A DNA stretch of 64,000 nucleotides, from assembly GCA_963851265.1 (NCBI GenBank), contig CAWKNZ010000002.1, forward strand, positions 576,001-640,000, given 5' to 3'. The stretch comes from an uncultured Gemmatimonadales bacterium (GTDB lineage Bacteria > Gemmatimonadota > Gemmatimonadetes > Gemmatimonadales > Gemmatimonadaceae). A model generated the notes under the pieces. That model searched no databases and was not told the DNA's origin. It saw only the letters and a program-made list of their open reading frames with translations. This document shows positions 7,057-64,000 of the stretch, in pieces (positions within the stretch are counted from its first letter, which is position 1; every line of letters begins with the position of its first letter). The position numbers and the translations under genes were made by a program.

Positions 7057-9291
7057 TTGACGCGCGCCCTCGCCGCGCTCGCCGCCGCCCTGCTCGCGGG
7101 CGCCGCGGTCGGCGGCCCGCGGCGCGCCGGCGCGCAGGACCTGCGGTGCGAGCGCGGGGATCGCGAAGTGCGCTCGCTCCGCTTCACCGGCAACCGCGCG
7201 TTCAGCGACGGCGAACTCGCGCGCGTGGTGGTCACCACGCCCTCGGCCCTCCTGAGCGGCATCGGGCTCGGGCCGCACCGCTGCCTCAACCCCGACGAGT
7301 TTCCGCGCGACGTGCTGCGCCTCGTTGCGTACTACCGCAAGCGCGGCTACCGCACGGCCAGCGTCGACACGATCGTGCGGCCGACGGGCGGCTCCGCGGC
7401 GCGGCCGCACGTCGCGGTCACCTTCGCCATCCGCGAGGGGACACCCGTGCGACTCGACTCGCTCACGGTGGCCGGCCTCGCCGACGTGCGCCCCGGCCCG
7501 CGGACCCGCGCGCGCGCCGCGATCCGGCTACGCCCGGGCGACGTGTTCGACCTCGTGGCGCTGGAGGCGGGGCGCGACACGCTCCGCGACCGGCTGCGCA
7601 ACGGCGGCTACCCGCGGGCCGACGCGCTCCTCTCCTACGACACCGACTCGACGCGCCTGCGGGCCGTGGCCCGGGTGACGGTCGTGCCCGGGCCGCTCAC
7701 GCGCATCGGGCGGATCGTCGTGAGCGGCACCGGTCCCGACGGCGGCGCGCCGCACATCCCCGACCGGGTGGTGCGCGGGACGCTCGGCATCCGTCCCGGC
7801 GATCCGGTGCGGCTCAACGATTTGCTCGAGGCGCAGCGCACGCTCTATCAGACGGACGCGTACCGGCGTGTGGACGTGCGGCTCGACACGGCCGCGCGCG
7901 CGCCCCGGGCGGACGGCGTGGTCTACGACGACCTGTTCGTCACCGCCGACGAGGGCCCGCTGCGCTCCGCGGAGGCGTCCGCGGGGTGGGCCACGCTCGA
8001 CTGCTTCCGGCTGCGGGCCGACATCACCGACCGCTACTTCATTCCGCAGGCGCAGCGGCTGGAGCTGTCGGGGCGGCTGTCGCGCATCGGGGTGGGGCAT
8101 CCGCTCGCCTTCGCGCCCGGGCTGTGCGCGCCGCCGGCGCGCAGCGACGCCTACGGCGACACGGCCAACTACTACCTCGGCGCCACGGTGCGCCAGCCGT
8201 CGTTCTTCCGGCTGCGGCGCGTGCCGAGCGTCACGGTGTTCACGTCGCGCGCCTCCGAGTACAACGCGTTCGAGCGCGTGACGCCGTTAGGCGCGCTCTT
8301 CTCGCTCGCCTCGCGCCCGGGCTCGCGCCTGCCGAGCACGTTCACGTACCAGCTGGAGCGGGGGCGCACGGGGGCGAACGCGGCGGTGTTCTGCGCGGTG
8401 TTCTCGGCGTGCGACGACCTCACGCGCTCCGCGCTCGACCGCAACCGCACGGTGGGCACGCTCGGCTACGCGCTCGTGCGCAACCGGGCCAACGACCCGC
8501 TCAACCCGACGGCGGGGAACGTCGAGCGCCTCACGCTGCGGCACTCCTCGGCGCTCACCGGATCGGAGGCGACGCAGCGCTTCAACAAGGCGGTGGTGGA
8601 CGCGACGTACTACCGGACGGTCGTGGGCGGCGGCGTGTTCACCGCGCACGTGCAGGGCGGCACGCTGCTCGGCGACGCGCCGCAGCAGGAGCGGCTGTTC
8701 GCGGGCGGGCCGACCACGGTGCGCGGCTTCCGGCAGAACGAGCTCGGTCCGCAGGTCTACCTGCTGACCAACGTGGTCGCGGACACGGGGCGGGGCCGGG
8801 ACACCACGTACCACGCGGCGCCGGGCGCGGGGCCGGAGCGCACCATCCCGGCCGGCGGGAACACCCTCGTGGTGGGCAACCTGGAGTTGCAGCTGCGAAG
8901 CCCCGTTCTCCCGGACCTGCTCGCGGTGGCGCTGTTCACCGACGCGGGCGAGGTGTTCAACCGCGGGAGCGCCGGGACGACGGCGACCGGCGGCTCGCGC
9001 AGCCTGCGCGTGACGCCGGGCGCGGGGGTGCGCGTGCGGTCGCCGTTCGGCGCGATCCGGGTGGACCTCGGGTACAATCCGTACGCGGCGACGGCCGGTC
9101 CGGCGTACTACATCACGCCCGGCGACGCGCAGTCGCAGCGGCTGTACTGCGTGTCGCCGGGGAGTACGGGCGGCATCGTGGGCACGTCGGGGGCGAGCGG
9201 CCGCGGGTGTCCTCCCACGTACCGGCCGCCGAGTAGCTCCAGCTTCCTGCGCCGGTTGAATCCGAGCATCTGGATCGGCCAGGCGTTCTGA
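7057..9291 (+). CDS. tamA: Omp85-family outer membrane protein (TamA/BamA-like) with POTRA domains; start approximate
   Basis: Signal peptide ending AGA-Q, FTGNRAFS POTRA, GGPTTVRGF, SPFGAIRVDLG, C-terminal IGQAF; directly upstream of tamB-like gene. Confidence 0.85.
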   Translation: MTRALAALAAALLAGAAVGGPRRAGAQDLRCERGDREVRSLRFTGNRAFSDGELARVVVTTPSALLSGIGLGPHRCLNPDEFPRDVLRLVAYYRKRGYRTASVDTIVRPTGGSAARPHVAVTFAIREGTPVRLDSLTVAGLADVRPGPRTRARAAIRLRPGDVFDLVALEAGRDTLRDRLRNGGYPRADALLSYDTDSTRLRAVARVTVVPGPLTRIGRIVVSGTGPDGGAPHIPDRVVRGTLGIRPGDPVRLNDLLEAQRTLYQTDAYRRVDVRLDTAARAPRADGVVYDDLFVTADEGPLRSAEASAGWATLDCFRLRADITDRYFIPQAQRLELSGRLSRIGVGHPLAFAPGLCAPPARSDAYGDTANYYLGATVRQPSFFRLRRVPSVTVFTSRASEYNAFERVTPLGALFSLASRPGSRLPSTFTYQLERGRTGANAAVFCAVFSACDDLTRSALDRNRTVGTLGYALVRNRANDPLNPTAGNVERLTLRHSSALTGSEATQRFNKAVVDATYYRTVVGGGVFTAHVQGGTLLGDAPQQERLFAGGPTTVRGFRQNELGPQVYLLTNVVADTGRGRDTTYHAAPGAGPERTIPAGGNTLVVGNLELQLRSPVLPDLLAVALFTDAGEVFNRGSAGTTATGGSRSLRVTPGAGVRVRSPFGAIRVDLGYNPYAATAGPAYYITPGDAQSQRLYCVSPGSTGGIVGTSGASGRGCPPTYRPPSSSSFLRRLNPSIWIGQAF

Positions 9292-9340
9292 CCGGTCGCG
9301 ACCGGCCGCTCTCTTAACTTCGTTCGACCCCCGCTCCGCC

Positions 9341-12300
9341 GTGCCTCGCTCCCGCCGCCGACTCGCCGCCTACCTCGCGGCTGGCACCCTCCTCGTCGTC
9401 GCCGGCGGGGCGGTCGGGCTCGTCGTCGCCGTGACCCAGACGAACGCCGGGCACGACTGGCTCCGCAGCAAGCTGCTGTCGACGGTCGCGCCGAGCGTGC
9501 GCGGGCGGCTGTACGTGGGCGCGATCAGCGGGGGGTTGTTCTCCGGCGTCACCGTCGATTCGGTCGAGTTGCGGAGTGCGGACGACTCGCTCGTGGCGGC
9601 GGTCGGACGGGTGCACGTCGCGTACGCGCTCCGCGACCTGATCGACAAGCGCGTGTTCCTCAAGCGCGTCGACCTCGACCGCCCGGTGATCCACCTACGG
9701 CAGTTCGAGGATGGGCACTGGAACTACAACGGCCTGTTCAGGACGAGTGCGGACAGCACGCCGAAGAGTGGGCCGGGGTTCGGGGATTTCATCGTCGCCG
9801 ATTCGGTGCGGGTGCGCGGGCTGCAGTTCGCGCTCACGCTGGCGTGGCACCCCGCCGATTCGCTGCGCGGCGCACGGCGCGACAGCGCGATCCGCGTCGC
9901 GCTCGCCGGTCGCACGCAGGGCGGGGCGGAGATCCGGCGCGTCGGGCGGTACTACAACCGCACGTACCGCTGGAGCGGCGACGCCGACCTGCCCGGGATG
10001 CGCATCGCGCGGCCGGACAGCGCGGGGCTCCGGTTCCAGGTGGCGCGGCTGGACCTCGACGAGACGGACCCGCCGTTCCGCTGGCGCAACATCCGCGGCG
10101 ACGTGCGGATCCTCGGCGACACGCTCCATGCCGACTTCCCGCACTGGGACCTCCCGGGGAGCACGGGGCAGGGGCACGCGACCGTGGTGTGGGGGAGCGA
10201 CCTGCCGATCCGGTGGGACATCCGCGTGCATGCCGATTCGATGGCGCTGGCGGACGTCTCGTGGGTGTACCCGACGCTGCCGACCACCGGCGGCGGCTCG
10301 ATGGACCTGTACATGCACAACCGGCGCGGCGACCTGCGCATCATGGAGTACGCGCTGTCCAACATGGACGTGCGTACGACGCGCTCGCACCTGACCGGGG
10401 CGATGACGTTCGCGGTGGGCGCGCCGGTGTTAGGCGTGCAGGACGTCGACGTCGCGCTGCAGCCGGTGAACTGGGACCTGCTGCGCACGTTCAACGGCAA
10501 GGCGCTGCCGTACGACTTCCAGGGCACGCTCACCGGCACGGTGAAGGCGCGCGGCGGCCCGGTGAACCGCTTCGCGGTGGACGACGCGCAGGTGACCTAC
10601 GACGACGCGCACGTGCCGGGCGCCGTGTCGCGCGTGCGGCTCGCGGGCGCGCTCGACATCCTCCGGCCGGCCGACACGCGCTTTCTCGGACTGCGGGTGA
10701 CGGACGCGTTCGTCGACCTGCGGACGCTCGAGTTCCTCAACCCGAGCTTCCCGCGGCTGCGCGGCGTGGTGACGGGGAGCACGACGCTCGACTCGCTCTA
10801 CACCGACGTGCGGCTGAGCGACGCGCGCCTGACGCACAGCGACGGCCCCGGCGCGGCGAGCACGTTCACCGGCGGTGGGCGGGTCACGTTTGGCGAGGGG
10901 CCCACGCCGACGCGCTACGACCTGACGCTGGCGGCGGAGCCGCTGTCGTTCACGACGCTGGCGCGCTCGTACCCACTGGTGGCGGTGCGCGGGTCGTACG
11001 CCGGGCCGCTGCGCATCACGGGCGCGACCGACAGTCTGGGGCTCGTCACCACGCTCACCGGGCCGGGGGGGACGCTCGCGTACGACGGGATCGTCAACGC
11101 GCTCGACCCGCGGTACGGGGCGACGGGCGCGTTCACGGGGACGGGGCTCGACCTGCGCACGCTGTTCGACGACCAGCGCCTGCCGCGCACGACGCTCGAC
11201 CTGCGCGCATCGCTCGCCCTCGTCGGTACGGGGCTGGCCGACCTCGCCGGCACGCTGCGCGCGGACCTCGGCCGCTCCGAGATCGGCGGCGTGCGCGCGT
11301 ACGGCGGCGCGGCCGCGCTGCGCTTCGCCGGTGGGCGCATGGCAGTCGACACGCTACGGCTCGAGACCGCGGCGGGGCAGGTGGCGGGCGCGGGCGGGCT
11401 CGGGCTGGCTGGGCCGGCGCGCGACTCGCTGCGGCTCGCGATCTCGATCGATTCGTTAGGCGGGCTGCGGCGGTGGCTGTCGCCGAGCGCGGTGACGGCC
11501 GAGCGCGCGGCGGTCGCGGGCGCGAGCCCGGCGGCGCGGGCGGCGGCGCGCGACCCCGTCGCGCGGCTGGTGGACGAGGCCACGCGGCGGCCGGTGGCGG
11601 GCGTGATCGCGCGCGTGGCCGGGACCGCCGGGACGGACCCGGCCGCCGCCGCGGCACCGGCGCGCGATTCGGCGGGCGCCCCCGCGGGAGGTGCCACGGC
11701 GGCGGCGCCGCCCGCGACCACCGACTCGCTCGCCGGCACGCTGCGCGCGACGGTCACGCTCGCCGGAACGCTCGACAGCGCGGCCGCCGACGGGCTCCGC
11801 GCGTCGGCCGCGGTCGACGGGCGCGGGCTCGTCTACGGCGGGTTCGCTGCGCGCGCGCTCACGCTGCGCGTGGGGGCCACGTCGCTCCGCTCGGTGCCGA
11901 ACGTGACCCTCGCGGCGACCGCGGATTCCGCGAGTGCTGGGGCGGTGACGTTCGCGAGCGCGGCGGCGCACTTCAGCGGGACGACCGCGGGCGGGCGCTA
12001 CGACGTGGCGATGGGGAGCGATTCCGGGCTGTCGCTCTCGGGCGCGGGGCACACGGTGAGCGTGGGCGACAGCACTGTGGTCGCGCTCGACAGCGCGCGC
12101 GTGGTGCCGCGCCCGGGGCACCTGTGGACGCTGGCGGCGCCGACGCGCTTCGTCGCGCGTGGCGGTACGGCGCTCGCGCCGGGCACGGGCGAGGCGGGCG
12201 GGGTCCTCGCGCTCGATCCGTTCACCCTGCGCGGCGAAGGCGAGGACCTGGGGTCGCGTCTGACGCTCGCGGCGACGCTGCCCGAGCGGGGCCCGGTCAC

Positions 12301-14209
12301 GGGCACGTTCAACGCGACGGCGGTGTCGATCCAGGACGTGGCCGAGGTAGCGGGGGCCGGGCGCGCGGTGCTGCCCGTGGACGGGCGGCTCGACGCGACG
12401 GTGCGGCTCACCGGCACGCGCGCCGAGCCGCTGCTCGTGGCGCGTGCGGGGGTGGGGGCGTTGCGGCTGGGCACCGGGACGGCGACGGCGCGGCTCGACA
12501 GCGCGACGCTCGCCGCGGACTACGGCGCGCACCGCCTGCAACTCGACCTCGGCGCGTTCGCCGCCGGGCGGCGGCTGCTCGCCGCCACGGGCTCGCTCCC
12601 CATCGACCTCGCGCTCGAGCCGTCGGCCGGGCGGCTCCCGCAGGGGACGGCGCCGTCGGACTCGCTGCGCGCGCGCGTGCGCGCCGACTCGCTCGACCTC
12701 GCGCTCGTGGCCGCGCTCGCGCCGGGCGTGCACGACGCGCGGGGCCACCTCGCGGCGACGTTCGACGTGGGCGGCACGTGGAAGGCGCCCCGGCTCGACG
12801 GAGAGCTGCGCATCCCCGCGGGCTCGCTCACGAGCGACGCGTCGGGCACGCGGCTCGAGGACGTGCGCGCCGACGTCGCGCTGCTCGGCGACAGCGTGGC
12901 GGTGCGGCGACTCTCGGTGCGGAGTGGGGGCGCCGGCGACACGCTCGCCGTCACCGGGTGGGTGAAGCTGGCGCCGGCGGACGACCCGGCGCTCGCGCTG
13001 CGCGTGACCGCACGCGACTTCCTCGCCGTCGACCGCGCGCGAGTCGCGACGCTGGCGATCTCGACGCCGACGCCGCTCGACATCCGGGGCACCTTCGGCG
13101 CGGCGCAGGTGAGCGGCGCGGTTCGCGCGGAGCGCGGCCGGATCTACATCCCGGAACTCGTCGACAAGCGGATCATCGACCTCAACGAGTACCGCGACGT
13201 CGTCGACACCACGGTGTTCCGCAACCGCACCCTGCTGCCCGGCGCGCCTGCGGCCTTCGTGGCGAACCTCGCGCTCAACGACGTGCGGCTCTCGGTGGGT
13301 GACGACGTGTGGCTGCGGAACGCGGAGGCGAACATCAAGCTCGGCGGGTCGCTCGCGGTGACGCGCGCCGTCGTGCAGGTGAACGGGCGCGCAGTCCCGC
13401 AGCTCGCGCTGCTGGGCTCGCTCGCGGTGGAGCGCGGGACGTACCGCCTCGACCTGCTGCCGCTGGCGCAGCCGAGCTTCGACGTGCAGCCGGGGACGCT
13501 GCGCTTCTTCGGCGCGGGCGACCTCAACCCGGTCCTCGACATCCGCGCGGTGCACGTGGTGCGGCAGACGCGGCAGTTCACCAACAGCCCCGACGTGCAC
13601 GTGCAGGTCGCGATCGGCGGCACGCTCAACCAGCCCACGCTGCAGCTGTCGAGCACCGACAACCCGCCGATCCCGGACACGGACCTCATCAGCTACCTCG
13701 TCACGGGCGAGCCCGCGGCGGCCATCTTCGGCAACGCGCAGTCGAGCGACCAGCTCGCGGCCGCGGCGTCGATCGTCTCGCGCCTCGCGGGCAGCCTCGT
13801 GTCGGGCGCGCTGTCGCGCGGCAACGGGCCTTTCGACATCATCTCGGTCGAGACCGGCGCGGTCACCGCCGACCCGGCGCTCGCCCGCTCGACCAACAGC
13901 TTCTCCAACATCCTCTCGAGCACGCGCCTGGGCGTGGGCGGCCAGCTCGGACAGAAGACGTTCTACACGTTCAGCACGGGGTTCTGCAGCTTCTCGCAGA
14001 ACAGCGACGCGTCCACCAACCTGTTCAACAACTTCACGCGCGGGCTCGGCGTGCGGGTCGAGCGGCGGGTGACGAACACGTTCTCGGTGCAGGTGGGCGT
14101 CGAACCCGCGCTGGCGCAACAGGCCTGCCTGACCAATGCGACCACGCGCTACTTCCAGCAGACGCCGTCGCAGGGAAGCCTCGACTTCACCAAGCGGTGG
14201 ACGTTCTAG
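9341..14209 (+). CDS. tamB: Translocation/assembly module TamB-like protein (1622 aa)
   Basis: N-terminal TM anchor, long beta-rich body, C-terminal DUF490-like segment (NPVLDIRA...IGGTLNQPTLQLSS...DLISYLVTG). Confidence 0.85.
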   Translation: MPRSRRRLAAYLAAGTLLVVAGGAVGLVVAVTQTNAGHDWLRSKLLSTVAPSVRGRLYVGAISGGLFSGVTVDSVELRSADDSLVAAVGRVHVAYALRDLIDKRVFLKRVDLDRPVIHLRQFEDGHWNYNGLFRTSADSTPKSGPGFGDFIVADSVRVRGLQFALTLAWHPADSLRGARRDSAIRVALAGRTQGGAEIRRVGRYYNRTYRWSGDADLPGMRIARPDSAGLRFQVARLDLDETDPPFRWRNIRGDVRILGDTLHADFPHWDLPGSTGQGHATVVWGSDLPIRWDIRVHADSMALADVSWVYPTLPTTGGGSMDLYMHNRRGDLRIMEYALSNMDVRTTRSHLTGAMTFAVGAPVLGVQDVDVALQPVNWDLLRTFNGKALPYDFQGTLTGTVKARGGPVNRFAVDDAQVTYDDAHVPGAVSRVRLAGALDILRPADTRFLGLRVTDAFVDLRTLEFLNPSFPRLRGVVTGSTTLDSLYTDVRLSDARLTHSDGPGAASTFTGGGRVTFGEGPTPTRYDLTLAAEPLSFTTLARSYPLVAVRGSYAGPLRITGATDSLGLVTTLTGPGGTLAYDGIVNALDPRYGATGAFTGTGLDLRTLFDDQRLPRTTLDLRASLALVGTGLADLAGTLRADLGRSEIGGVRAYGGAAALRFAGGRMAVDTLRLETAAGQVAGAGGLGLAGPARDSLRLAISIDSLGGLRRWLSPSAVTAERAAVAGASPAARAAARDPVARLVDEATRRPVAGVIARVAGTAGTDPAAAAAPARDSAGAPAGGATAAAPPATTDSLAGTLRATVTLAGTLDSAAADGLRASAAVDGRGLVYGGFAARALTLRVGATSLRSVPNVTLAATADSASAGAVTFASAAAHFSGTTAGGRYDVAMGSDSGLSLSGAGHTVSVGDSTVVALDSARVVPRPGHLWTLAAPTRFVARGGTALAPGTGEAGGVLALDPFTLRGEGEDLGSRLTLAATLPERGPVTGTFNATAVSIQDVAEVAGAGRAVLPVDGRLDATVRLTGTRAEPLLVARAGVGALRLGTGTATARLDSATLAADYGAHRLQLDLGAFAAGRRLLAATGSLPIDLALEPSAGRLPQGTAPSDSLRARVRADSLDLALVAALAPGVHDARGHLAATFDVGGTWKAPRLDGELRIPAGSLTSDASGTRLEDVRADVALLGDSVAVRRLSVRSGGAGDTLAVTGWVKLAPADDPALALRVTARDFLAVDRARVATLAISTPTPLDIRGTFGAAQVSGAVRAERGRIYIPELVDKRIIDLNEYRDVVDTTVFRNRTLLPGAPAAFVANLALNDVRLSVGDDVWLRNAEANIKLGGSLAVTRAVVQVNGRAVPQLALLGSLAVERGTYRLDLLPLAQPSFDVQPGTLRFFGAGDLNPVLDIRAVHVVRQTRQFTNSPDVHVQVAIGGTLNQPTLQLSSTDNPPIPDTDLISYLVTGEPAAAIFGNAQSSDQLAAAASIVSRLAGSLVSGALSRGNGPFDIISVETGAVTADPALARSTNSFSNILSSTRLGVGGQLGQKTFYTFSTGFCSFSQNSDASTNLFNNFTRGLGVRVERRVTNTFSVQVGVEPALAQQACLTNATTRYFQQTPSQGSLDFTKRWTF

Positions 14210-57340: not shown

Positions 57341-58030
57341 CTACGGTCGGAACGTCTCCGACCGCACCTCGAAGTGCCTCGTCTCCCCGCCCAGCACCCG
57401 CTCCGCCAGCACCTTCAGCCCGTTGCCTAACGCCGTGCCCGGGCTGCGACGCCCGCGCACCGCCGGCCGCAGCTCCCCGCGCAGCCAGCGCTCGACCTCG
57501 TCGAGGTCCGAGAGCGACAGCGTCTCGACGTCGATCACGACGTTGTAGTACGCCCGCTTCCCCCGCGGCGCGACGATCGCCGGGCGAAACGGCCGCTCGG
57601 CCGCCGCCGCCGCCTCGTCCAACTCGGCGAAGCGTCCCAGAAACGTGATCTGGTCGTCGACGATCCGCGCCACGTCGTACACCTTGGCCAGCGGGTCCAG
57701 CCGCACCACGACGTCCCACTCGCGCGTAGCCTGCAGGTCGTTGAACACGCGCCCCACCGTCCACAGCTCGGTCTTGTAGTGGATGCGCACGGGGAAGCTG
57801 TGGCCCAGCAGATCGCGCAACTCCCGGTCGTCCAGCACGCGTACGACGCGCACGAGCGGGCCCTCCGCCGCGAGCGACGCCTGTGCCGGCAGGCGGATCT
57901 CCGCACCCGCGCGCTGCGCGCCGGCCCGCGCCGGCCCGACCGCGGCGAGCGCTACGAGCAGCACTGCCAGCCCGAAGGCGAGCGAACGCCAGCGGCGCAC
58001 GTCGCGCCATCCCAGGACGGTCCGCCGCAC
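57341..58030 (-). CDS. Exported protein, DUF4390-like; start approximate
   Basis: Signal peptide ending ARA-GAQ; VRIHYKTELW...VRLDPLAKVYDV; last gene of a two-component operon. Confidence 0.55.
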   Translation of the reverse strand: MRRTVLGWRDVRRWRSLAFGLAVLLVALAAVGPARAGAQRAGAEIRLPAQASLAAEGPLVRVVRVLDDRELRDLLGHSFPVRIHYKTELWTVGRVFNDLQATREWDVVVRLDPLAKVYDVARIVDDQITFLGRFAELDEAAAAAERPFRPAIVAPRGKRAYYNVVIDVETLSLSDLDEVERWLRGELRPAVRGRRSPGTALGNGLKVLAERVLGGETRHFEVRSETFRP

Positions 58031-58035
58031 GTCGC

Positions 58036-61000
58036 CTAGAATCGGCGCTGCAGTCGCAGGAACACCGTCAACGGCCGGTCGGGCGCGGTCACGCTCTTGG
58101 CCAGGTACACGCCGAACGCGCCGATGTCGCGGCTGCCGTGCGGATGCCCGAAGTCGATGCCCGCGCCGAGATCGGCCAGCGTCGTCCCGAGCGCGGGGAG
58201 CGTGCCCGCCGCGTACTCGATCGACCCTTGACGCGGGCCGACGAGCCAGCCGCGCCCGGCGTCCGCGAACACCACCCACGTGAACTCGGTACGCAGCCCG
58301 CGCCGCACGCGCTCGCCACCCTCGTCGCCGGTGAACAGCCCCACACGCACGTCCGTCCGGTACTCGACCTGCCCGAGCGCGATCCGCTCGCACTGGGCCG
58401 GGTCGCCCGAGGGTTGCAGGCCGCGCACGCTGCAATCGGCCACGTCGAACCCGCCCGTGCCTGCGGCCTGACGGAAGCTGTACCCCGCAATCGCCCCCGG
58501 CCCGCTCACCGACAGACGTCGTTCCAGGGGCAGCGCGTCACCGTGCAGCCTCCCGCCCGCGACGAGTCGGAGGTTCAACTGCGCGTCGGGCGTGAGCCGG
58601 TTGTAGCGCCGCACGTCGAGGAAGCCGCGCCCGTACGCGCGGTGTCCGGGCGTCTCGTCGCGCGCGCCGGGCACCGGGCGCGTGCCGCGCTCGGCGATGT
58701 CGGCCGAGACCGGGGCGAAGTCGTCGAGCGTGCCCGTCCCGTACTCGTAGTCGGCGGCGACATACCATCCCGCCCACGGCCGGTTCACGTCGTTCCGCGT
58801 GTCGATCCGCACGTTGGCCGTGATCAGGTGCATGCGCCCCTCGTCCACCGCCGGATTCGGGCGCCACACCTCGCGGCCGCGCAGGATCGTCGCGGGGTTG
58901 AGCTGCGGGCGCGTGCGCCAGCGCTCGTCGGCGTAGCCCAGGGTCAGCGACGCGTCCGGGCCGAGGTCGGCGCCAGCCGAGACCGCCGCGCCGTGCCGCC
59001 CGTACCAGTCGCGGAAGTCGCGCCGCAGCAGGAATGAAGAGAGCCCCGTCTCCGTCGGTGACAGCTGCCAGTCCTCCACCGGCACGACGACGTCATACAG
59101 TCGGCCGCCCAAGCGCACGTGGCGCCTGCGCCCGACGCGCAGCTCCGCGCGCGCATCGTGTCCGCGGTGTTGCCGGTCCCACTCGAATTCGCCGGCCGTG
59201 CGGTACAGCCCCAGCACGTCGACCGAGAGACGCGCGTCGCGAGCGACCTGCGCCTCGAGCGTGGGCCCGACCACGATCGGAAGTCCTTCGGCCCGGTTGT
59301 ACGCGCCGCCCGACGCGAGCATGAACCCGGCATACGTGCGCGCGCTCGGCGCGCCACCCAGGCGAAAGCGCGCGCGCCGCTCGTCGGTCGCGTCGGGCGC
59401 CAGGGCGTCGGCGTCGCGGACGAGGGTGTCGCCGCGCTGCGCGACCGTCGCCGGCCGCCGGTCGATGCGCAGCTCGCCGCCGAGGAGGGCTTCCCGGCGT
59501 CCGTCCACCAGACCGCCGACGACGAGCACGTCGCCGTCGATCCGCGCACCCGGGCGAAAGGTGAGGTCGCCGTTCACCACCGTCAGTCGGCCCGTGACGC
59601 GCCCCGCCACCGTCACCGGCCCGCTCATAACGGCCACGTCGCCCGCGACCGTGCTGCCGGCGGGCACCACGAACCGGCCGCGCACGCGGAACGTCCCGGG
59701 CGCGTTGTACCGCGCGATGGCATCGGCGATACCGTCCGACGCGGCGTCCGGCACGGTGTCCGGACGTGCGGGCGCCGCGGCCGGCGACGTGGGAGGGTGC
59801 GCCTGGGCGTGCGCGGCCCGCGCCGGCGTGCCCGCGACTCCGACGGCGATGGCGCAGCCGAGCGTGATCGCCAGCCGCCGCATCCGTCGGTAGAGGTTGG
59901 GCCGATCGGTCCTGAGCCGCCGCGCCGCGTCGGCCACGTTGCCTCCCGCGGCCGACAGCGCGCGCACGATCAGCGTGCGTTCGTACGCGTCGAGCGCGTC
60001 GGCGAGCGCGATGTCGAGCCCGGCCGAGTCGGGCAGGGGACCGAGTTCACGCGGCGAGACGTCGGGGCCGCGCTCGTCCGCGTCGCCCGCCCCACCGCCG
60101 GCCCCGAGCACGCGGCGCGCATCCACCGCGCGCACCTCGCCGCCCGGTTGGAGGATCGCGAGCCGCTCCACCACGTTCGCCAGCTCGCGCACGTTGCCCG
60201 GCCACGGGTGTCGCTCCATCACCGCGAGCGCGTCGTCGCTCCACACCGGCGCGGGGCGCCCCGTCCGGGCGCGGTACAGGGACGAGAAGTGCCGCACGAG
60301 CAGGGGGACGTCGCCCGGTCGCTCGCGCAAGGGCGGCAGGTGGATCGGGATCACGTTGAGCCGGAAGAACAGGTCCTCGCGGAACGCGCCCTCGGCGACG
60401 GCGCGCGCGAGCTCCTTGTTCGTGGCCGACACGATCCGCACGTCCACCCGGATCGGCCGCGCGCCGCCCACGCGCTCCACCTCGCCCGCCTCGAGGGCGC
60501 GCAGCAGCTTCGCCTGCGCCTCCGCGCCGAGGTCGCCCACCTCGTCGAGGAACAGCGTGCCGGTGTGGGCCAGCTCGAAGCGCCCGATCCGTCGCTCGGT
60601 GGCGCCGGTGAACGCGCCGCGCTCGTGCCCGAACATCTCGCTCTCGACGAGGTCGCGCGGGATGGCTGCGCAGTTGACGCGCACGAACGGCCGCTCGCGC
60701 CGCGCGCTCGCGGCGTGCAGGCCGGCCGCGACCAGTTCCTTGCCCGTGCCGCTCTCGCCGGTCACCAGCACGCGCGCGTCGGTCGGCCCCACGCGCGCGA
60801 CCATCCCGCGCACCGCGGCCATCGCCGGGCTGTCGCCGATCATCGCCCCGCCGAGCCCGATCTCCTCGCGCAACGCGCGCGCCTCCCGCCGCGCGCGCCG
60901 CAGCTCGAGTGCGCTACCTAACGCCAGCAGGACGCCCTCGGGGGTGAGCGGCTTCTCGAGGAAGGTGAACGCCCCGAGCTTCGTCGCGCGCACGGCGTCG

Positions 61001-61260
61001 CCGAGCGCGGCGCGCCCGCTCATCATCACCACCGGCAGGTCGGGCAGCTGCTCGCGAAGGCGCTCCAGCATCCCGAGCCCGTCGATCGCGCCGGGCATCA
61101 TCAGATCCACGAGCGCGACGTCGGGCTCCGCGGCGCGCACCGCGGCGAGGCCCGCCGTCGCGTCGGGCGCGTCGCGCACGTCGTACCCTTCGCCCGCGAG
61201 CAGCGCGCCGACCATCCGCCGGATGTTCGGCTCGTCGTCGACGATCAGGACACTCGGCAC
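58036..61260 (-). CDS. Sigma-54-dependent response regulator (NtrC/NtrX type) in frame with a beta-helix + outer-membrane beta-barrel protein
   Basis: VDDE/DLMMP/EKP, GESGTGKE, GAFTGA, FLDEV, WPGNVREL, Fis-type HTH; then MRRLAITLG...AHA-Q, GDV/VNGD/IDGDV repeats, YNRAEG, VFADAGRGW, C-terminal F. Confidence 0.85.
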   Translation of the reverse strand: MPSVLIVDDEPNIRRMVGALLAGEGYDVRDAPDATAGLAAVRAAEPDVALVDLMMPGAIDGLGMLERLREQLPDLPVVMMSGRAALGDAVRATKLGAFTFLEKPLTPEGVLLALGSALELRRARREARALREEIGLGGAMIGDSPAMAAVRGMVARVGPTDARVLVTGESGTGKELVAAGLHAASARRERPFVRVNCAAIPRDLVESEMFGHERGAFTGATERRIGRFELAHTGTLFLDEVGDLGAEAQAKLLRALEAGEVERVGGARPIRVDVRIVSATNKELARAVAEGAFREDLFFRLNVIPIHLPPLRERPGDVPLLVRHFSSLYRARTGRPAPVWSDDALAVMERHPWPGNVRELANVVERLAILQPGGEVRAVDARRVLGAGGGAGDADERGPDVSPRELGPLPDSAGLDIALADALDAYERTLIVRALSAAGGNVADAARRLRTDRPNLYRRMRRLAITLGCAIAVGVAGTPARAAHAQAHPPTSPAAAPARPDTVPDAASDGIADAIARYNAPGTFRVRGRFVVPAGSTVAGDVAVMSGPVTVAGRVTGRLTVVNGDLTFRPGARIDGDVLVVGGLVDGRREALLGGELRIDRRPATVAQRGDTLVRDADALAPDATDERRARFRLGGAPSARTYAGFMLASGGAYNRAEGLPIVVGPTLEAQVARDARLSVDVLGLYRTAGEFEWDRQHRGHDARAELRVGRRRHVRLGGRLYDVVVPVEDWQLSPTETGLSSFLLRRDFRDWYGRHGAAVSAGADLGPDASLTLGYADERWRTRPQLNPATILRGREVWRPNPAVDEGRMHLITANVRIDTRNDVNRPWAGWYVAADYEYGTGTLDDFAPVSADIAERGTRPVPGARDETPGHRAYGRGFLDVRRYNRLTPDAQLNLRLVAGGRLHGDALPLERRLSVSGPGAIAGYSFRQAAGTGGFDVADCSVRGLQPSGDPAQCERIALGQVEYRTDVRVGLFTGDEGGERVRRGLRTEFTWVVFADAGRGWLVGPRQGSIEYAAGTLPALGTTLADLGAGIDFGHPHGSRDIGAFGVYLAKSVTAPDRPLTVFLRLQRRF

Positions 61261-61273
61261 CGTCTACGCCGCG

Positions 61274-61909
61274 TCACCCATGGTCGGCCCGCAGCGCGGC
61301 CGACACGGCCGGCGCGGTCGGCGCGGGGGCTGCGATCCGGTCGGTGAGCAGTTGCGCCGAGTAGCGCTGCGCCTCGGAGATCCGCTCGACCTCGATCGCG
61401 ACTGCCTCGACCGCCTGCTCGATGCGCGCCAGGCGTGCCGCGGCCTCCGGCGCGAGCGCCGCCGTCGTCCCCGCGACGACGCGCCGGCCCGCGATCGCGC
61501 GCGAGATCACGAGCGCGATGAGAAACAGGAACGAGAAGACGATCGCGACCACCGGCACGACGCCGTCCGGCACGCCCTGCGGCCTGCGGTCGTGGTCCGT
61601 CGGCTGGAGCGTGGTTCGCACCATCTCCTGGATCTGGTCGCCGTCCAGCCCGACCTTCGGGTCGATCGTGATCGTCTTGCCGTCGGGGCCCGTCACGACG
61701 ATGCGCCCGCCGGGCTCCTTCACGACGCCCGTGTTCGTCCCCGCCTGCGACAGGTCGCGCGCGGCCTGCGCGGCCAGCCTCCCGGCCTCCCGCCCGGCTT
61801 GCGCCGCGTCGTGGGTCGCCTGGGCGAGGTCGGCCCGATCCTGCGTGCTGATCACCGGGGCCTCGGGACTGGCGGGAGGTGTTGGTTGCGAGATCAGACG
61901 AAAGTTCAT
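61274..61909 (-). CDS. Hypothetical single-TM protein with C-terminal coiled coil
   Basis: VVPVVAIVFSFLFLIALVI; RLARIEQAVEAVAIEVERISEAQRY; start overlaps kinase stop. Confidence 0.75.
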   Translation of the reverse strand: MNFRLISQPTPPASPEAPVISTQDRADLAQATHDAAQAGREAGRLAAQAARDLSQAGTNTGVVKEPGGRIVVTGPDGKTITIDPKVGLDGDQIQEMVRTTLQPTDHDRRPQGVPDGVVPVVAIVFSFLFLIALVISRAIAGRRVVAGTTAALAPEAAARLARIEQAVEAVAIEVERISEAQRYSAQLLTDRIAAPAPTAPAVSAALRADHG

Positions 61910-63192
61910 GTACGTGTCTCTGAATGGTCGCCGTCCGGGACTGCCGGGGCACCGTGCACCGGCAGAATGAAACGGATCTCCGTCCCGCGCCCTACGGCAC
62001 TGACCGCGTCAACGTGTCCGCCGTGCGCCAGCACCGTCTGCCGCGCGATCGCCAGCCCCAGCCCCGTCCCGTGCGCCTTGTGCGTGACGTAGGGATCCCA
62101 GATGTGCGCGAGCTGCTCGGGCGCGATGCCGGCGCCCGTGTCACGCACCGCGAGTTCGACCGTTCCGTCCACGCGCCCCACGCGCACGTCCACCCGGCCC
62201 CCCGCCGCCGTCGCCTCGACGGCGTTGAGCAGCACGTTCGTGAGCGCCCGCGCCAGCGCGTCGTAGCGCCCCGGCACCAACGGCACGTCGGGCGCGACCT
62301 CCACGGACGCCTGCAGCGTCTCGGGCACGGTGGTCGCGGTCGCCCACCTCGCCAGCTCGCCCAGATCGACGTCGGCGAGCGGTCCATCGGGGAGCCGGCC
62401 GAACTGCGCGAACCCGCGGGCCATCGCCTCTAACCGCGCGGTCTCCGCCGCCAGCACCTCGACCGCCTCGGCCTGGCCGGGAACGGCGTCGCGCCGCAGC
62501 CGGTCCACCGCGAAGCGGATCGGCGTGAGCGGATTCTTGAGCTCGTGCGCCACGCGCCGCGCCGCCTCACGAAACGCCTCCGCCCGCTCGGCTTCGAGCG
62601 CGCGCTCGCGCCCCGCGGCCAGCTCGCGCGCCATCGTGCGCATCCGCCGTCGCAGCACGCGAAACTCCGGCGCGCCACGCGGCTCGGGCTCCTGCGGCAG
62701 CGGCGCCCCCTCCTGGACGAGCCCCGTCCAGCGCACCAGTTGCCCGAGCGGCCGCGACAGCTGCCGGCTGAGGTGCCCCGCCACGCGCGACGCGACGAGC
62801 GTGAGTCCGGCGACGAGCAGCGCCCCGCCCGCAAGCAGCACGCGCGCCACTCGCGGGGCCACGTAGCTGTACCGGCGGGACAGCTCGAGCGACGCGCGCA
62901 GCTCCTGCGCGTGCGCGTCGACCGCCCGGTCGAGCGCGCGGCGCTCGACCGGGGTGAGCGGGCGCGTCCTCCGCGGGTCGGCCGCGGCGCGCGCCGCGGC
63001 GAGCGCCACCTCGCCCGTGGCCGCTGCACGCTCCCACGCGACGCCGCCGCTCAGGAGCGGCACCGCGCGCGCGATCGCGCCCGTCCACGCGAGGGTTAAC
63101 AGCACCGACGGGCAGACGGCGAACAGCAGCAGGATGGCGAAGAGGCGCGCCCGATACGACAGCCGGAGCGGGCGGAGCCGAGTGCGGATCAC
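61906..63192 (-). CDS. Membrane sensor histidine kinase (2 TM, HAMP-like, HisKA, HATPase; NtrY-like H box); start approximate
   Basis: RRVAHELKNPLTPI, NVLLNAVEA, DTGAG, GTGLGL. Confidence 0.9.
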   Translation of the reverse strand: MIRTRLRPLRLSYRARLFAILLLFAVCPSVLLTLAWTGAIARAVPLLSGGVAWERAAATGEVALAAARAAADPRRTRPLTPVERRALDRAVDAHAQELRASLELSRRYSYVAPRVARVLLAGGALLVAGLTLVASRVAGHLSRQLSRPLGQLVRWTGLVQEGAPLPQEPEPRGAPEFRVLRRRMRTMARELAAGRERALEAERAEAFREAARRVAHELKNPLTPIRFAVDRLRRDAVPGQAEAVEVLAAETARLEAMARGFAQFGRLPDGPLADVDLGELARWATATTVPETLQASVEVAPDVPLVPGRYDALARALTNVLLNAVEATAAGGRVDVRVGRVDGTVELAVRDTGAGIAPEQLAHIWDPYVTHKAHGTGLGLAIARQTVLAHGGHVDAVSAVGRGTEIRFILPVHGAPAVPDGDHSETRT

Positions 63193-63405: not shown

Positions 63406-64000
63406 ATGGCCGACCAGCCGACGCTCGACCAGCTCTTCGCTCAGCGCGCCATCACCCGGGCGGAGCGCCCGCTGGTCGTCGCCGGTGCGCGCACGCTCAC
63501 CTACGCCGACGTCGACCGGCGGGGCGCCGCGCTCGCCGCCGCGCTCGCCGACCTCGGCGTGGCCCGCGGTGACCGCCTCGCCATCGCCCTGCCCAACCGC
63601 GCCGAGTGGATCGTCGTCCTGCGCGCCGCCGCGGCCCTCGGCGCGGTCGTCGTTCCGGTCAACCCGCGGCTCGGTCCGCACGAGCTCAAGTACCAGCTCC
63701 GGCACGCGGGCGCGGCGTGCCTCGTCGTCGCCGACCGCGACGACGGGCTCGACACCCTCACGCTGTACGAGGGCGTGCTCGCCGATCTGCCGGCGCTCCG
63801 CCTGTTAGTCACCGTCGGCGACGAGACGGAGCGCTGGTACGACGACCGGATCTTCCGCCTCGAAGACCTGGTCTCCAAGGGCGAGGGCCGCCGCCCGCCG
63901 ACACCCGACGTCGGGCCCGACGTCGATCTCGCCCAGCTCTACACGTCGGGCACGATGGGCAATCCGAAGGGCGTCCGGTTGAGCCACCGCGCCGTCATCC
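63406..64000 (+). CDS. AMP-binding acyl-CoA synthetase family protein, 5' part only
   Basis: Manual translation: LTYADVD, GVARGDR, VPVNPRL, YTSGTMGNPKGV. Confidence 0.93.
   Translation, partial: MADQPTLDQLFAQRAITRAERPLVVAGARTLTYADVDRRGAALAAALADLGVARGDRLAIALPNRAEWIVVLRAAAALGAVVVPVNPRLGPHELKYQLRHAGAACLVVADRDDGLDTLTLYEGVLADLPALRLLVTVGDETERWYDDRIFRLEDLVSKGEGRRPPTPDVGPDVDLAQLYTSGTMGNPKGVRLSHRAVI

Follow-up and report, generated by a model that had tools for sequence, protein, structure and literature searches.

In a 64,000-nucleotide stretch of the genome of an uncultured Gemmatimonadales bacterium (GenBank assembly GCA_963851265.1; contig CAWKNZ010000002.1, positions 576,001 to 640,000; referred to here as the window), a single open reading frame (ORF) joins a sigma-54-dependent transcriptional activator to an Omp85-fold beta-barrel. 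The fused ORF (58036..61260, minus strand; 1074 amino acids [aa]) begins with a GTG start codon, runs from 61260 to 58036 with no internal stop codons, and consists of a receiver (REC) domain, an AAA+ ATPase domain, a helix-turn-helix (HTH) that continues as a predicted export signal, a linker, a beta-helix, and the barrel. The independent assemblies compared below indicate that this fusion is real and not an assembly artefact. Coordinates are those of the window, and its features lie on the minus strand unless stated otherwise.

All domains of the front half were matched by Pfam models above cut-off, i.e., Response_reg (PF00072; residues 4 to 110; 60931..61251), Sigma54_activat (PF00158; residues 140 to 307; E = 5e-68) and the AAA lid (PF25601; residues 312 to 380), which together form a sigma-54 AAA+ core with its lid (residues 140 to 380; 60121..60843), and HTH_8 (PF02954; residues 426 to 462; 59875..59985), a Fis-type HTH. 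The motifs DDE (residues 8 to 10), the phospho-acceptor Asp52, GESGTGKE (Walker A; 168 to 175), GAFTGA (215 to 220), LFLDE (Walker B; 236 to 240), and sensor II WPGNVREL (353 to 360) are all present. The preliminary description of this locus, drawn up from the letters and their ORFs, had reported a stop-free 1074-aa frame with intact REC, AAA+ (Walker A, GAFTGA, and Walker B), and Fis-type HTH domains, and the Pfam matches and motifs confirm it. By these domains and motifs, the front half is an NtrC-family sigma-54 activator with a complete domain set. Its top Foldseek matches were NtrX and NtrC1 (36 to 40% identity). Neither half recurs as a close copy in the source genome (G000), where the next activator was 46% identical and no second barrel was detected at E ≤ 1e-20.

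The rear half was matched by Pfam only below cut-off (Bactofilin, PF04519, residues 522 to 579, E = 1e-3; Omp85, residues 730 to 1042, E = 1e-3) and was characterized by structure prediction. We used an AlphaFold2 model built with a 120-row alignment (mean predicted local distance difference test [pLDDT], 75; predicted template modeling score, 0.54), in which the AAA+ core was modelled poorly; an alignment-free fold of the barrel half (pLDDT, 37) was not used. The model contains a single helix (residues 453 to 475) spanning the junction between the HTH and the hydrophobic segment that follows it, a Bactofilin-like beta-helix (residues 524 to 600; 59461..59691; pLDDT >90), and a barrel (residues 642 to 1074; 58039..59337) with 16 strands at residues 642 to 1069 and a terminal Phe. 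The barrel matched Sam50, BamA, and TamA (Z, 22 to 23; root mean square deviation [rmsd], 3.9 to 5.1; 303 to 326 residues aligned), the best match being Sam50 (Z, 23.2; rmsd, 3.9; 324 residues aligned), and PF01103 was present in 27 to 52% of the members of the Atlas clusters that matched it. The earlier suggestions of a Bactofilin-like beta-helix and an Omp85-like barrel ending in Phe are thus borne out, the former by a weak Pfam match together with the modelled beta-helix and the latter by the 16 modelled strands and the fold matches. The barrel has an Omp85 fold, but by domain content it is neither a BamA nor a TamA.

The two halves meet within the last HTH helix, DRPNLYRRMRRL, which appears to serve two uses. 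It leads directly into a predicted internal Sec/signal peptidase I-type signal peptide (residues 460 to 485; 59806..59883), with an n-region (MRR) taken from the HTH, a hydrophobic h-region, and the c-region AHA, followed by Gln486 (59803..59805), with which the mature barrel is predicted to begin and which is near-invariant across 26 aligned fusions. The sequence reads as first described, with the last HTH helix continuing as a signal-like segment, an ATG at 59883 (Met460), and AHA-Q with Gln486 at 59805. As the signal starts at residue 460 of the ORF, it would lie at the N-terminus of a chain only if translation began internally. Each of the 54 distinct fused junctions had the join DRxNLYRR-M(R/K)RL followed by a hydrophobic stretch; all 54 had a 12-residue window with hydrophobicity ≥1.8 after the HTH Met, and 50 had an AxA-Q/E site (median position, 30). 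The same two tests were passed by 83 and 79 of 92 barrels encoded by separate genes (split barrels), respectively, and by 10 and 24 of 136 split activators read beyond their stop codons. Median hydrophobicity was 2.47 for fused signals versus 2.32 for split-barrel N-termini, and the uncharged run was longer in the fused signals (median, 23 versus 20 residues). With a dN/dS of 0.36 to 0.51, the junction segment changes in sequence but retains its hydrophobicity and predicted cut site. Judged against these controls, the junction features exceed chance.

We rejected a lipoprotein signal at the junction: a Cys is present 9 residues past the Met, no lipobox precedes it, and it is absent from several fusions. 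The Gln that follows the predicted cut is common in the source genome, where x.[AG]Q came next in 165 of 365 signal-like N-termini versus 47 of 893 other proteins, i.e., a Q-rule-like habit of exported proteins outside Bacteroidetes. The pattern resembles the Bacteroidetes Q-rule, and a text search for Gemmatimonad in the relevant paper (PMC5837995) gave no hit.

The in-frame junction was found in 27 genomes from four Gemmatimonadaceae genera, while 137 other loci (not fully de-duplicated by genome) consisted of two genes. The 70 genomes of the family were hand-picked, mostly those with a single match in an earlier search, and are thus a non-random sample. Fusion was observed in 5 of 5 genomes of the source genus (g1), 10 of 10 of g57, 10 of 11 of g86, and 2 of 3 of g18, the third of which gave no ortholog with the query used. 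The best 30 loci from 61 genomes comprised 5 fused loci from the source genus and 25 from other genera with a stop codon 15 to 29 residues past the HTH motif. Protein searches (NCBI, JGI, ENA, and Logan sources) yielded 32 near-full-length fusions, and a set of 80 record-titled loci contained 1 fused locus, 75 with a stop, and 4 without the motif. Three split loci from genomes marked as unpublished (L017, L038, and L050; genomes G011, G160, and G061) are included in the tree and counts, and no conclusion depends on them alone. The preliminary description had left it to related genomes to decide whether the fusion was private to one assembly. It is not, being present in all five genomes of the genus and in 22 genomes of the three other genera, and the junction is stop-free in several lineages. 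Across the family, the orthologs are mostly encoded by two separate genes, and we therefore regard the fusion as the derived state.

Frameshifts outside the junction occurred in five fused assemblies (L061/L143, L144, L147, L148, and L151). As close relatives from other assemblies are whole (e.g., P0129 and P0115), these frameshifts are probably assembly errors. Among 28 proteins from an activator homolog search, only P0128 had a different kind of C-terminal continuation; this 601-aa protein (one member) is a read-through that retains the activator tail and the barrel's own Met and signal, has an end unlike the barrel, and is probably an assembly error.

On a 147-row activator tree, the fusions fell into three groups (clades A, B, and C), with the source genus in clade A. 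For IQ-TREE analyses (LG+G4), we used subsets of 45 activators and 52 barrels, which were picked after the 147-row tree had been seen. The activator and barrel trees each implied three changes, forced by starred branches, and the outgroups were split. A single fused clade was rejected by the approximately unbiased test (p-AU) for both the activator (p-AU = 0.006) and the barrel (p-AU = 1.4e-7), and one origin for all fusions is therefore rejected by both trees; the activator tree was compatible with a single origin of clades B and C (p = 0.137). Given that single-clade topologies are rejected, that B and C together are allowed, and that the outgroups are split, the fusion arose at least twice, and probably three times. 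A metagenome scan for the split sister group of clade A (nearest split relatives, P0010 to P0016) returned one locus, which was itself fused. The lineages also differ in architecture: the beta-helix is retained in clade A and absent from clades B and C, and the distance from HTH to barrel, signal included, is 196 to 216 aa in the 9 clade A proteins and 79 to 126 aa in 22 of the 23 others (one was not measurable).

Fusion would be a small step, since in 46 of 119 split loci the stop codon of the activator is overlapped by a start codon that lies in frame with the barrel. With an HTH that ends in Met and basic residues and genes that frequently overlap, the locus is, by its sequence layout, pre-adapted to fusion. 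The repeated fixation suggests either a benefit or this pre-adaptation.

Both halves are under purifying selection. Across the three fused clades (samples of 5, 5, and 9 genomes, with synonymous sites near saturation in clade C), dN/dS was 0.04 to 0.13 for REC, AAA+ core, and HTH (AAA+ core, 0.04 to 0.11; HTH, 0.04 to 0.13) and 0.11 to 0.25 for the barrel. The Asp motif, Walker A, Walker B, sensor II, and the C-terminal Phe were each present in 32 of 32 fused proteins and the GAFTGA-type loop in 31.

Split relatives differ from fused loci in promoter context. Using a sigma-54 pattern (GG[CT]A[CT]N6TGC) that was relaxed after the data had been seen, we searched the 260 bases past the activator stop codon. 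The motif lay between the genes at 33 of 52 split loci with long spacers, compared with 0 of 204 control windows of the same loci, and at 1 of 67 split loci with short spacers. At fused loci, it was found before the junction in 1 of 25 and after the junction in 1 of 26. In many split relatives, therefore, the activator probably drives the barrel gene, and at fused and tightly coupled loci both products are probably made together. Across the whole source genome, 83 of 3629 predicted genes had the relaxed motif in the 200 bases that precede them, among them genes that by eye resemble clpB, dps, and transketolase; these are possible sigma-54 targets, unattributed to this activator.

We consider it likely, if well short of certain, that the ORF produces one precursor, whose internal signal directs its export and which signal peptidase I cleaves after Ala485. 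Four options had been proposed for the junction (i.e., a polyprotein split by signal peptidase, an internal start, a trans-envelope protein, and loss of a stop codon), of which the first appears to fit best, given the conserved AxA-Q site and the lack of an activator stop. Since the activator has no stop codon, it can be made only as the 1074-aa chain. The N-terminal domains would fold in the cytoplasm, the internal signal would engage the Sec translocon, and residues 486 to 1074 would cross the inner membrane; after cleavage, the barrel would reach the outer membrane by means of its C-terminal Phe signal, as its split relatives would. The activator (residues 1 to 485) would stay anchored by the spent signal until this anchor is trimmed to allow free DNA binding (RseP is a candidate), or else would work while tethered. 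Trimming is probably needed because the DNA-recognition helix runs straight into the membrane segment. RseP degrades spent signal peptides and frees membrane-held regulators, according to two reports (10.1101/2023.06.02.543501; PMC10202637). The kinase encoded upstream would phosphorylate Asp52, and the activator would then drive sigma-54 promoters. In the fused lineages, the sigma-54 promoter link of many split relatives is lost, and the two products would be made one to one. The source genome carries rpoN (domain E = 5e-64), two signal peptidase I genes (Peptidase_S26), RseP, and three other Omp85 genes.

Several observations weigh against this proposal. The signal features were scored by simple scripts rather than a trained predictor, and four of the 54 junctions (P0097, L175, L178, and L180) have no AxA-Q/E pattern. 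Promoter loss needs no fusion, since 66 of the 67 short-spacer split loci also have no sigma-54 motif. The sole split member of the otherwise fused genus g86, G408 (locus L179; G408:C39, about 2374 to 2440), owes its split to a one-base shift that produces an overlapping stop and start with GGAGG upstream; as it is placed inside clade C (support, 100/99), this split is a reversion or an assembly error. The fusion may therefore be dispensable, and a possible reversion, together with the many split relatives, suggests that it can be neutral. Finally, all 54 fusions retain the junction Met, as do 130 of 136 split loci, and the junction ATG was more start-like than internal ATGs (median score with a start position weight matrix, 0.45 to 6.2 versus -3.3). 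Together with the low use of Shine-Dalgarno (SD) sequences in the source genome, these features mean that internal initiation could supply much of the barrel.

That route is the core of the strongest rival, in which translation initiating at the HTH Met (59883) yields most of the barrel in the form of a conventional pre-protein, while the long product gives only the activator, its tail being cut or degraded. We think this rather unlikely, although it accounts for several features. Its product would begin with a complete signal peptide of normal length (M-R-R-L plus h-region; median cut at 30), the ATG context is intermediate between real starts and internal ATGs, and a second fusion in the genus, TetR-TolC (see below), has a GTG or ATG at the n-region in 4 of 5 genomes. 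It had been remarked that no obvious SD precedes 59883; this is correct, but the absence means little because SD use is low in this genome. In our gene calls, SD-like words were found upstream of 398 of 2135 predicted ATG starts (19%), 27% of 477 coupled starts, and 7.5% of internal ATGs, so that about three quarters or more of the predicted starts have none. Genome-wide, leaders are also C-rich and weakly structured. RNA structure at the junction ATG (dG, -12.4 to -14.8 in fused versus -14.8 in split loci) is weaker than at most internal ATGs, but equally so in 131 split orthologs, where the same ATG is no start. A comparison of fused and split contexts showed no selection for a start signal at this ATG and, as the contexts are equal, no start signal was gained at fusion. 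Retention of the Met is likewise near that of split loci, and the sequence upstream is taken up by HTH codons, so that no SD would fit. An upstream in-frame GTG with GGAGG was rejected as an internal start, being present in 1 of 5 clade A genomes. An internal start, one of the options first proposed, may be an extra route to the barrel, but it cannot explain an activator without a stop codon: only the barrel would have a different origin, and the long chain would still be needed for the activator and would still require processing.

The remaining alternatives fare worse. An uncleaved trans-envelope protein, with a cytoplasmic activator, one inner-membrane helix, a periplasmic linker and beta-helix, and an outer-membrane barrel connected for mechanical signalling, would agree with the continuous ORF and with an uncharged run (median, 23 versus 20 residues) long enough for a membrane span. 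We consider this option, one of those listed in the first description, very improbable, given that the AxA-Q/E site is kept in 50 of 54 junctions; the linker is also variable and of low complexity, and the distance from HTH to barrel in clades B and C, which have no beta-helix, is short for the periplasm. It is less probable still that one half is dead weight in a decaying fusion (i.e., the barrel is never exported or the activator does not work): the off-junction frameshifts in some fused assemblies could be read in this way, but the low dN/dS of both halves in three clades, the kept catalytic motifs and terminal Phe, and the intact close relatives speak against it. Simple loss of a stop codon is rejected because the fused loci have lost the spacer along with the start and n-region that the barrel had of its own, the n-region now coming from the HTH tail. 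An assembly error or stop loss private to the source genome is practically refuted by independent assemblies, in which the junction recurs in frame (27 genomes; 32 near-full-length proteins).

Beyond the cleaved precursor that we favor, we tentatively put forward a more speculative extension, namely, an export-gated transcription factor. DNA binding would become possible only after the barrel had been translocated, signal peptidase I had cut the chain, and an intramembrane protease had released the activator; the covalent link would have taken the place of an earlier promoter link and been favored by selection on two or three occasions, and the genus would use internal signals generally to co-encode cytoplasmic and exported partners. 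If so, sigma-54 output would report Sec and outer-membrane assembly capacity, with the barrel as a built-in test substrate.

Each half has well-known relatives. The nearest solved structures to the activator are NtrX of Brucella abortus (PDB 5m7n/5m7o/5m7p) and NtrC1 of Aquifex (4l4u and 1ny5), which share the layout of REC, AAA+, and Fis-type HTH. NtrX was the top fold match and is the name used by JGI, and NtrC1 and NtrC4 were about as similar. NtrC-family members share a neighbouring kinase with the fused locus, but they are soluble and end after the HTH, whereas the HTH of the fused protein runs into an export signal and an outer-membrane protein. Members of the Omp85 superfamily (BamA, TamA, and Sam50) share the 16-stranded barrel and terminal Phe at 10 to 19% identity, but the POTRA domains of BamA and TamA are absent here, with a beta-helix (clade A) or nothing (clades B and C) instead, and the fused barrel is synthesized as the rear half of a transcription factor. 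The position that we take, by eye, to be that of the Omp85 loop-6 motif (VRGF/Y) reads IAGYSFR (residues 924 to 930) without the Arg and is presumably degenerate at best.

Single chains that yield two products by way of an internal signal are known. FbcH of Bradyrhizobium japonicum, for which our search returned no describing paper, is encoded by one gene and gives cytochromes b and c1 via a cleaved internal signal; both products belong to one inner-membrane complex, and there is no transcription factor, outer-membrane product, or overlap of a signal with a functional helix. In IutY of Pseudomonas putida, according to a published report (PMC5411451), a cytosolic transcription factor and an extracytoplasmic domain also share one chain, and the sigma domain is freed by proteolysis ending in RseP. 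IutY combines an extracytoplasmic function sigma factor with its own periplasmic anti-sigma and receives its first cut from Prc upon a signal, whereas the fused protein combines a sigma-54 activator with an outer-membrane barrel and has a predicted signal peptidase I-type site in a signal that overlaps the HTH. The PlrP-PlrS-PlrR system of Bordetella (NtrYX family) groups a kinase, an NtrX-like regulator, and a small exported protein as is the case here; for its six-gene cluster, the abstract (PMC13001219) names no barrel, and there is no fusion. The exported protein of the fused locus, moreover, gave no match to PF14334 (DUF4390), the family looked for in a PlrP-type protein. Among the papers listed in a search of mostly non-subscription literature, none gave, by title or abstract start, an account of this fusion or of a bacterial polyprotein of a transcription factor and an outer-membrane protein. 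A polyprotein with an internal signal is a known kind; what is new is that the signal overlaps the recognition helix and that the fusion arose repeatedly.

Signal peptides are generally regarded as N-terminal and bacterial polyproteins as rare. In these fusions, one chain holds both a transcription factor and an outer-membrane protein, the same few residues form the DNA-recognition helix and the predicted start of the export signal, and the arrangement has been fixed independently in separate lineages. The fusions offer natural tests of Sec's tolerance for a signal preceded by 460 folded residues, of the fate of a spent signal peptide that stays joined to an active protein, and of a possible gating of transcription by export. 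They also indicate that annotation hides exported proteins in ORFs named for their cytoplasmic half, as NCBI and JGI label the fusions as regulators.

A scan of the source genome for internal signals revealed three further fusions. The first (locus L192; G000:C2:233357-235954, plus strand) joins a TetR regulator through a signal ending in VRA-Q to a TolC-type outer-membrane protein, a design like that of the activator-barrel fusion. Four genomes of the genus keep the frame through the signal, and in a fifth (G003) it stays open as far as the contig ends. The second (locus L246; G000:C1:58885-60150, plus strand) joins an AhpC/redoxin-like protein through a twin-arginine signal (WSRRAFV) to a 2Fe-2S subunit; every genus genome that gave a match (4 of 4) has it fused, and the 20 residues around the signal contain no start codon. 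The third (locus L193; G000:C2:1723571-1725010, plus strand) joins a creatininase through a signal (ARA-Q) to a DUF6134-like exported protein and is fused in 2 of 5 genus genomes (G000 and G003). All other readable junctions of this pair (G001, G002, G004, and other genera) contain a stop codon, and we therefore regard it as a young fusion. A fourth open frame (locus L194; G000:C6:106868-108397, minus strand) combines an N-terminus that looks methyltransferase-like by eye, a spacer-like linker, and an exported protein that has a Met and a signal of its own; a Pfam scan of this stretch gave no match, and the frame is probably a chance read-through. In none of the three fusions is a start codon conserved next to the signal. 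They make internal export signals plausible in this lineage, as observations from related genomes rather than as independent tests.

The gene upstream of the fused ORF encodes a sensor histidine kinase (61906..63192; start uncertain, the longest ORF beginning at 63705) with two hydrophobic segments and HAMP, HisKA, and HATPase domains, which by its position is the probable cognate kinase. Between the two lies a gene for a small protein (61274..61909) with one hydrophobic segment and a helical C-terminus, the latter presumably reminiscent of PspB; it had no Pfam match, matched only unnamed Gemmatimonadota Atlas clusters, and was present at 31 of 63 loci with sufficient upstream DNA. Downstream of the barrel, a further exported protein with a signal ending in AGA-Q (57341..58030; start uncertain) was present at 114 of 116 loci with room downstream; it had no Pfam match, PF14334 (DUF4390) included, and PF14334 was also unmatched across the source genome. 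Elsewhere in the window (7057 to 14209, plus strand), an Omp85 gene above the Pfam cut-off is followed by a 1622-aa gene, and the pair is probably tamA-tamB, with tamB assigned by position only.

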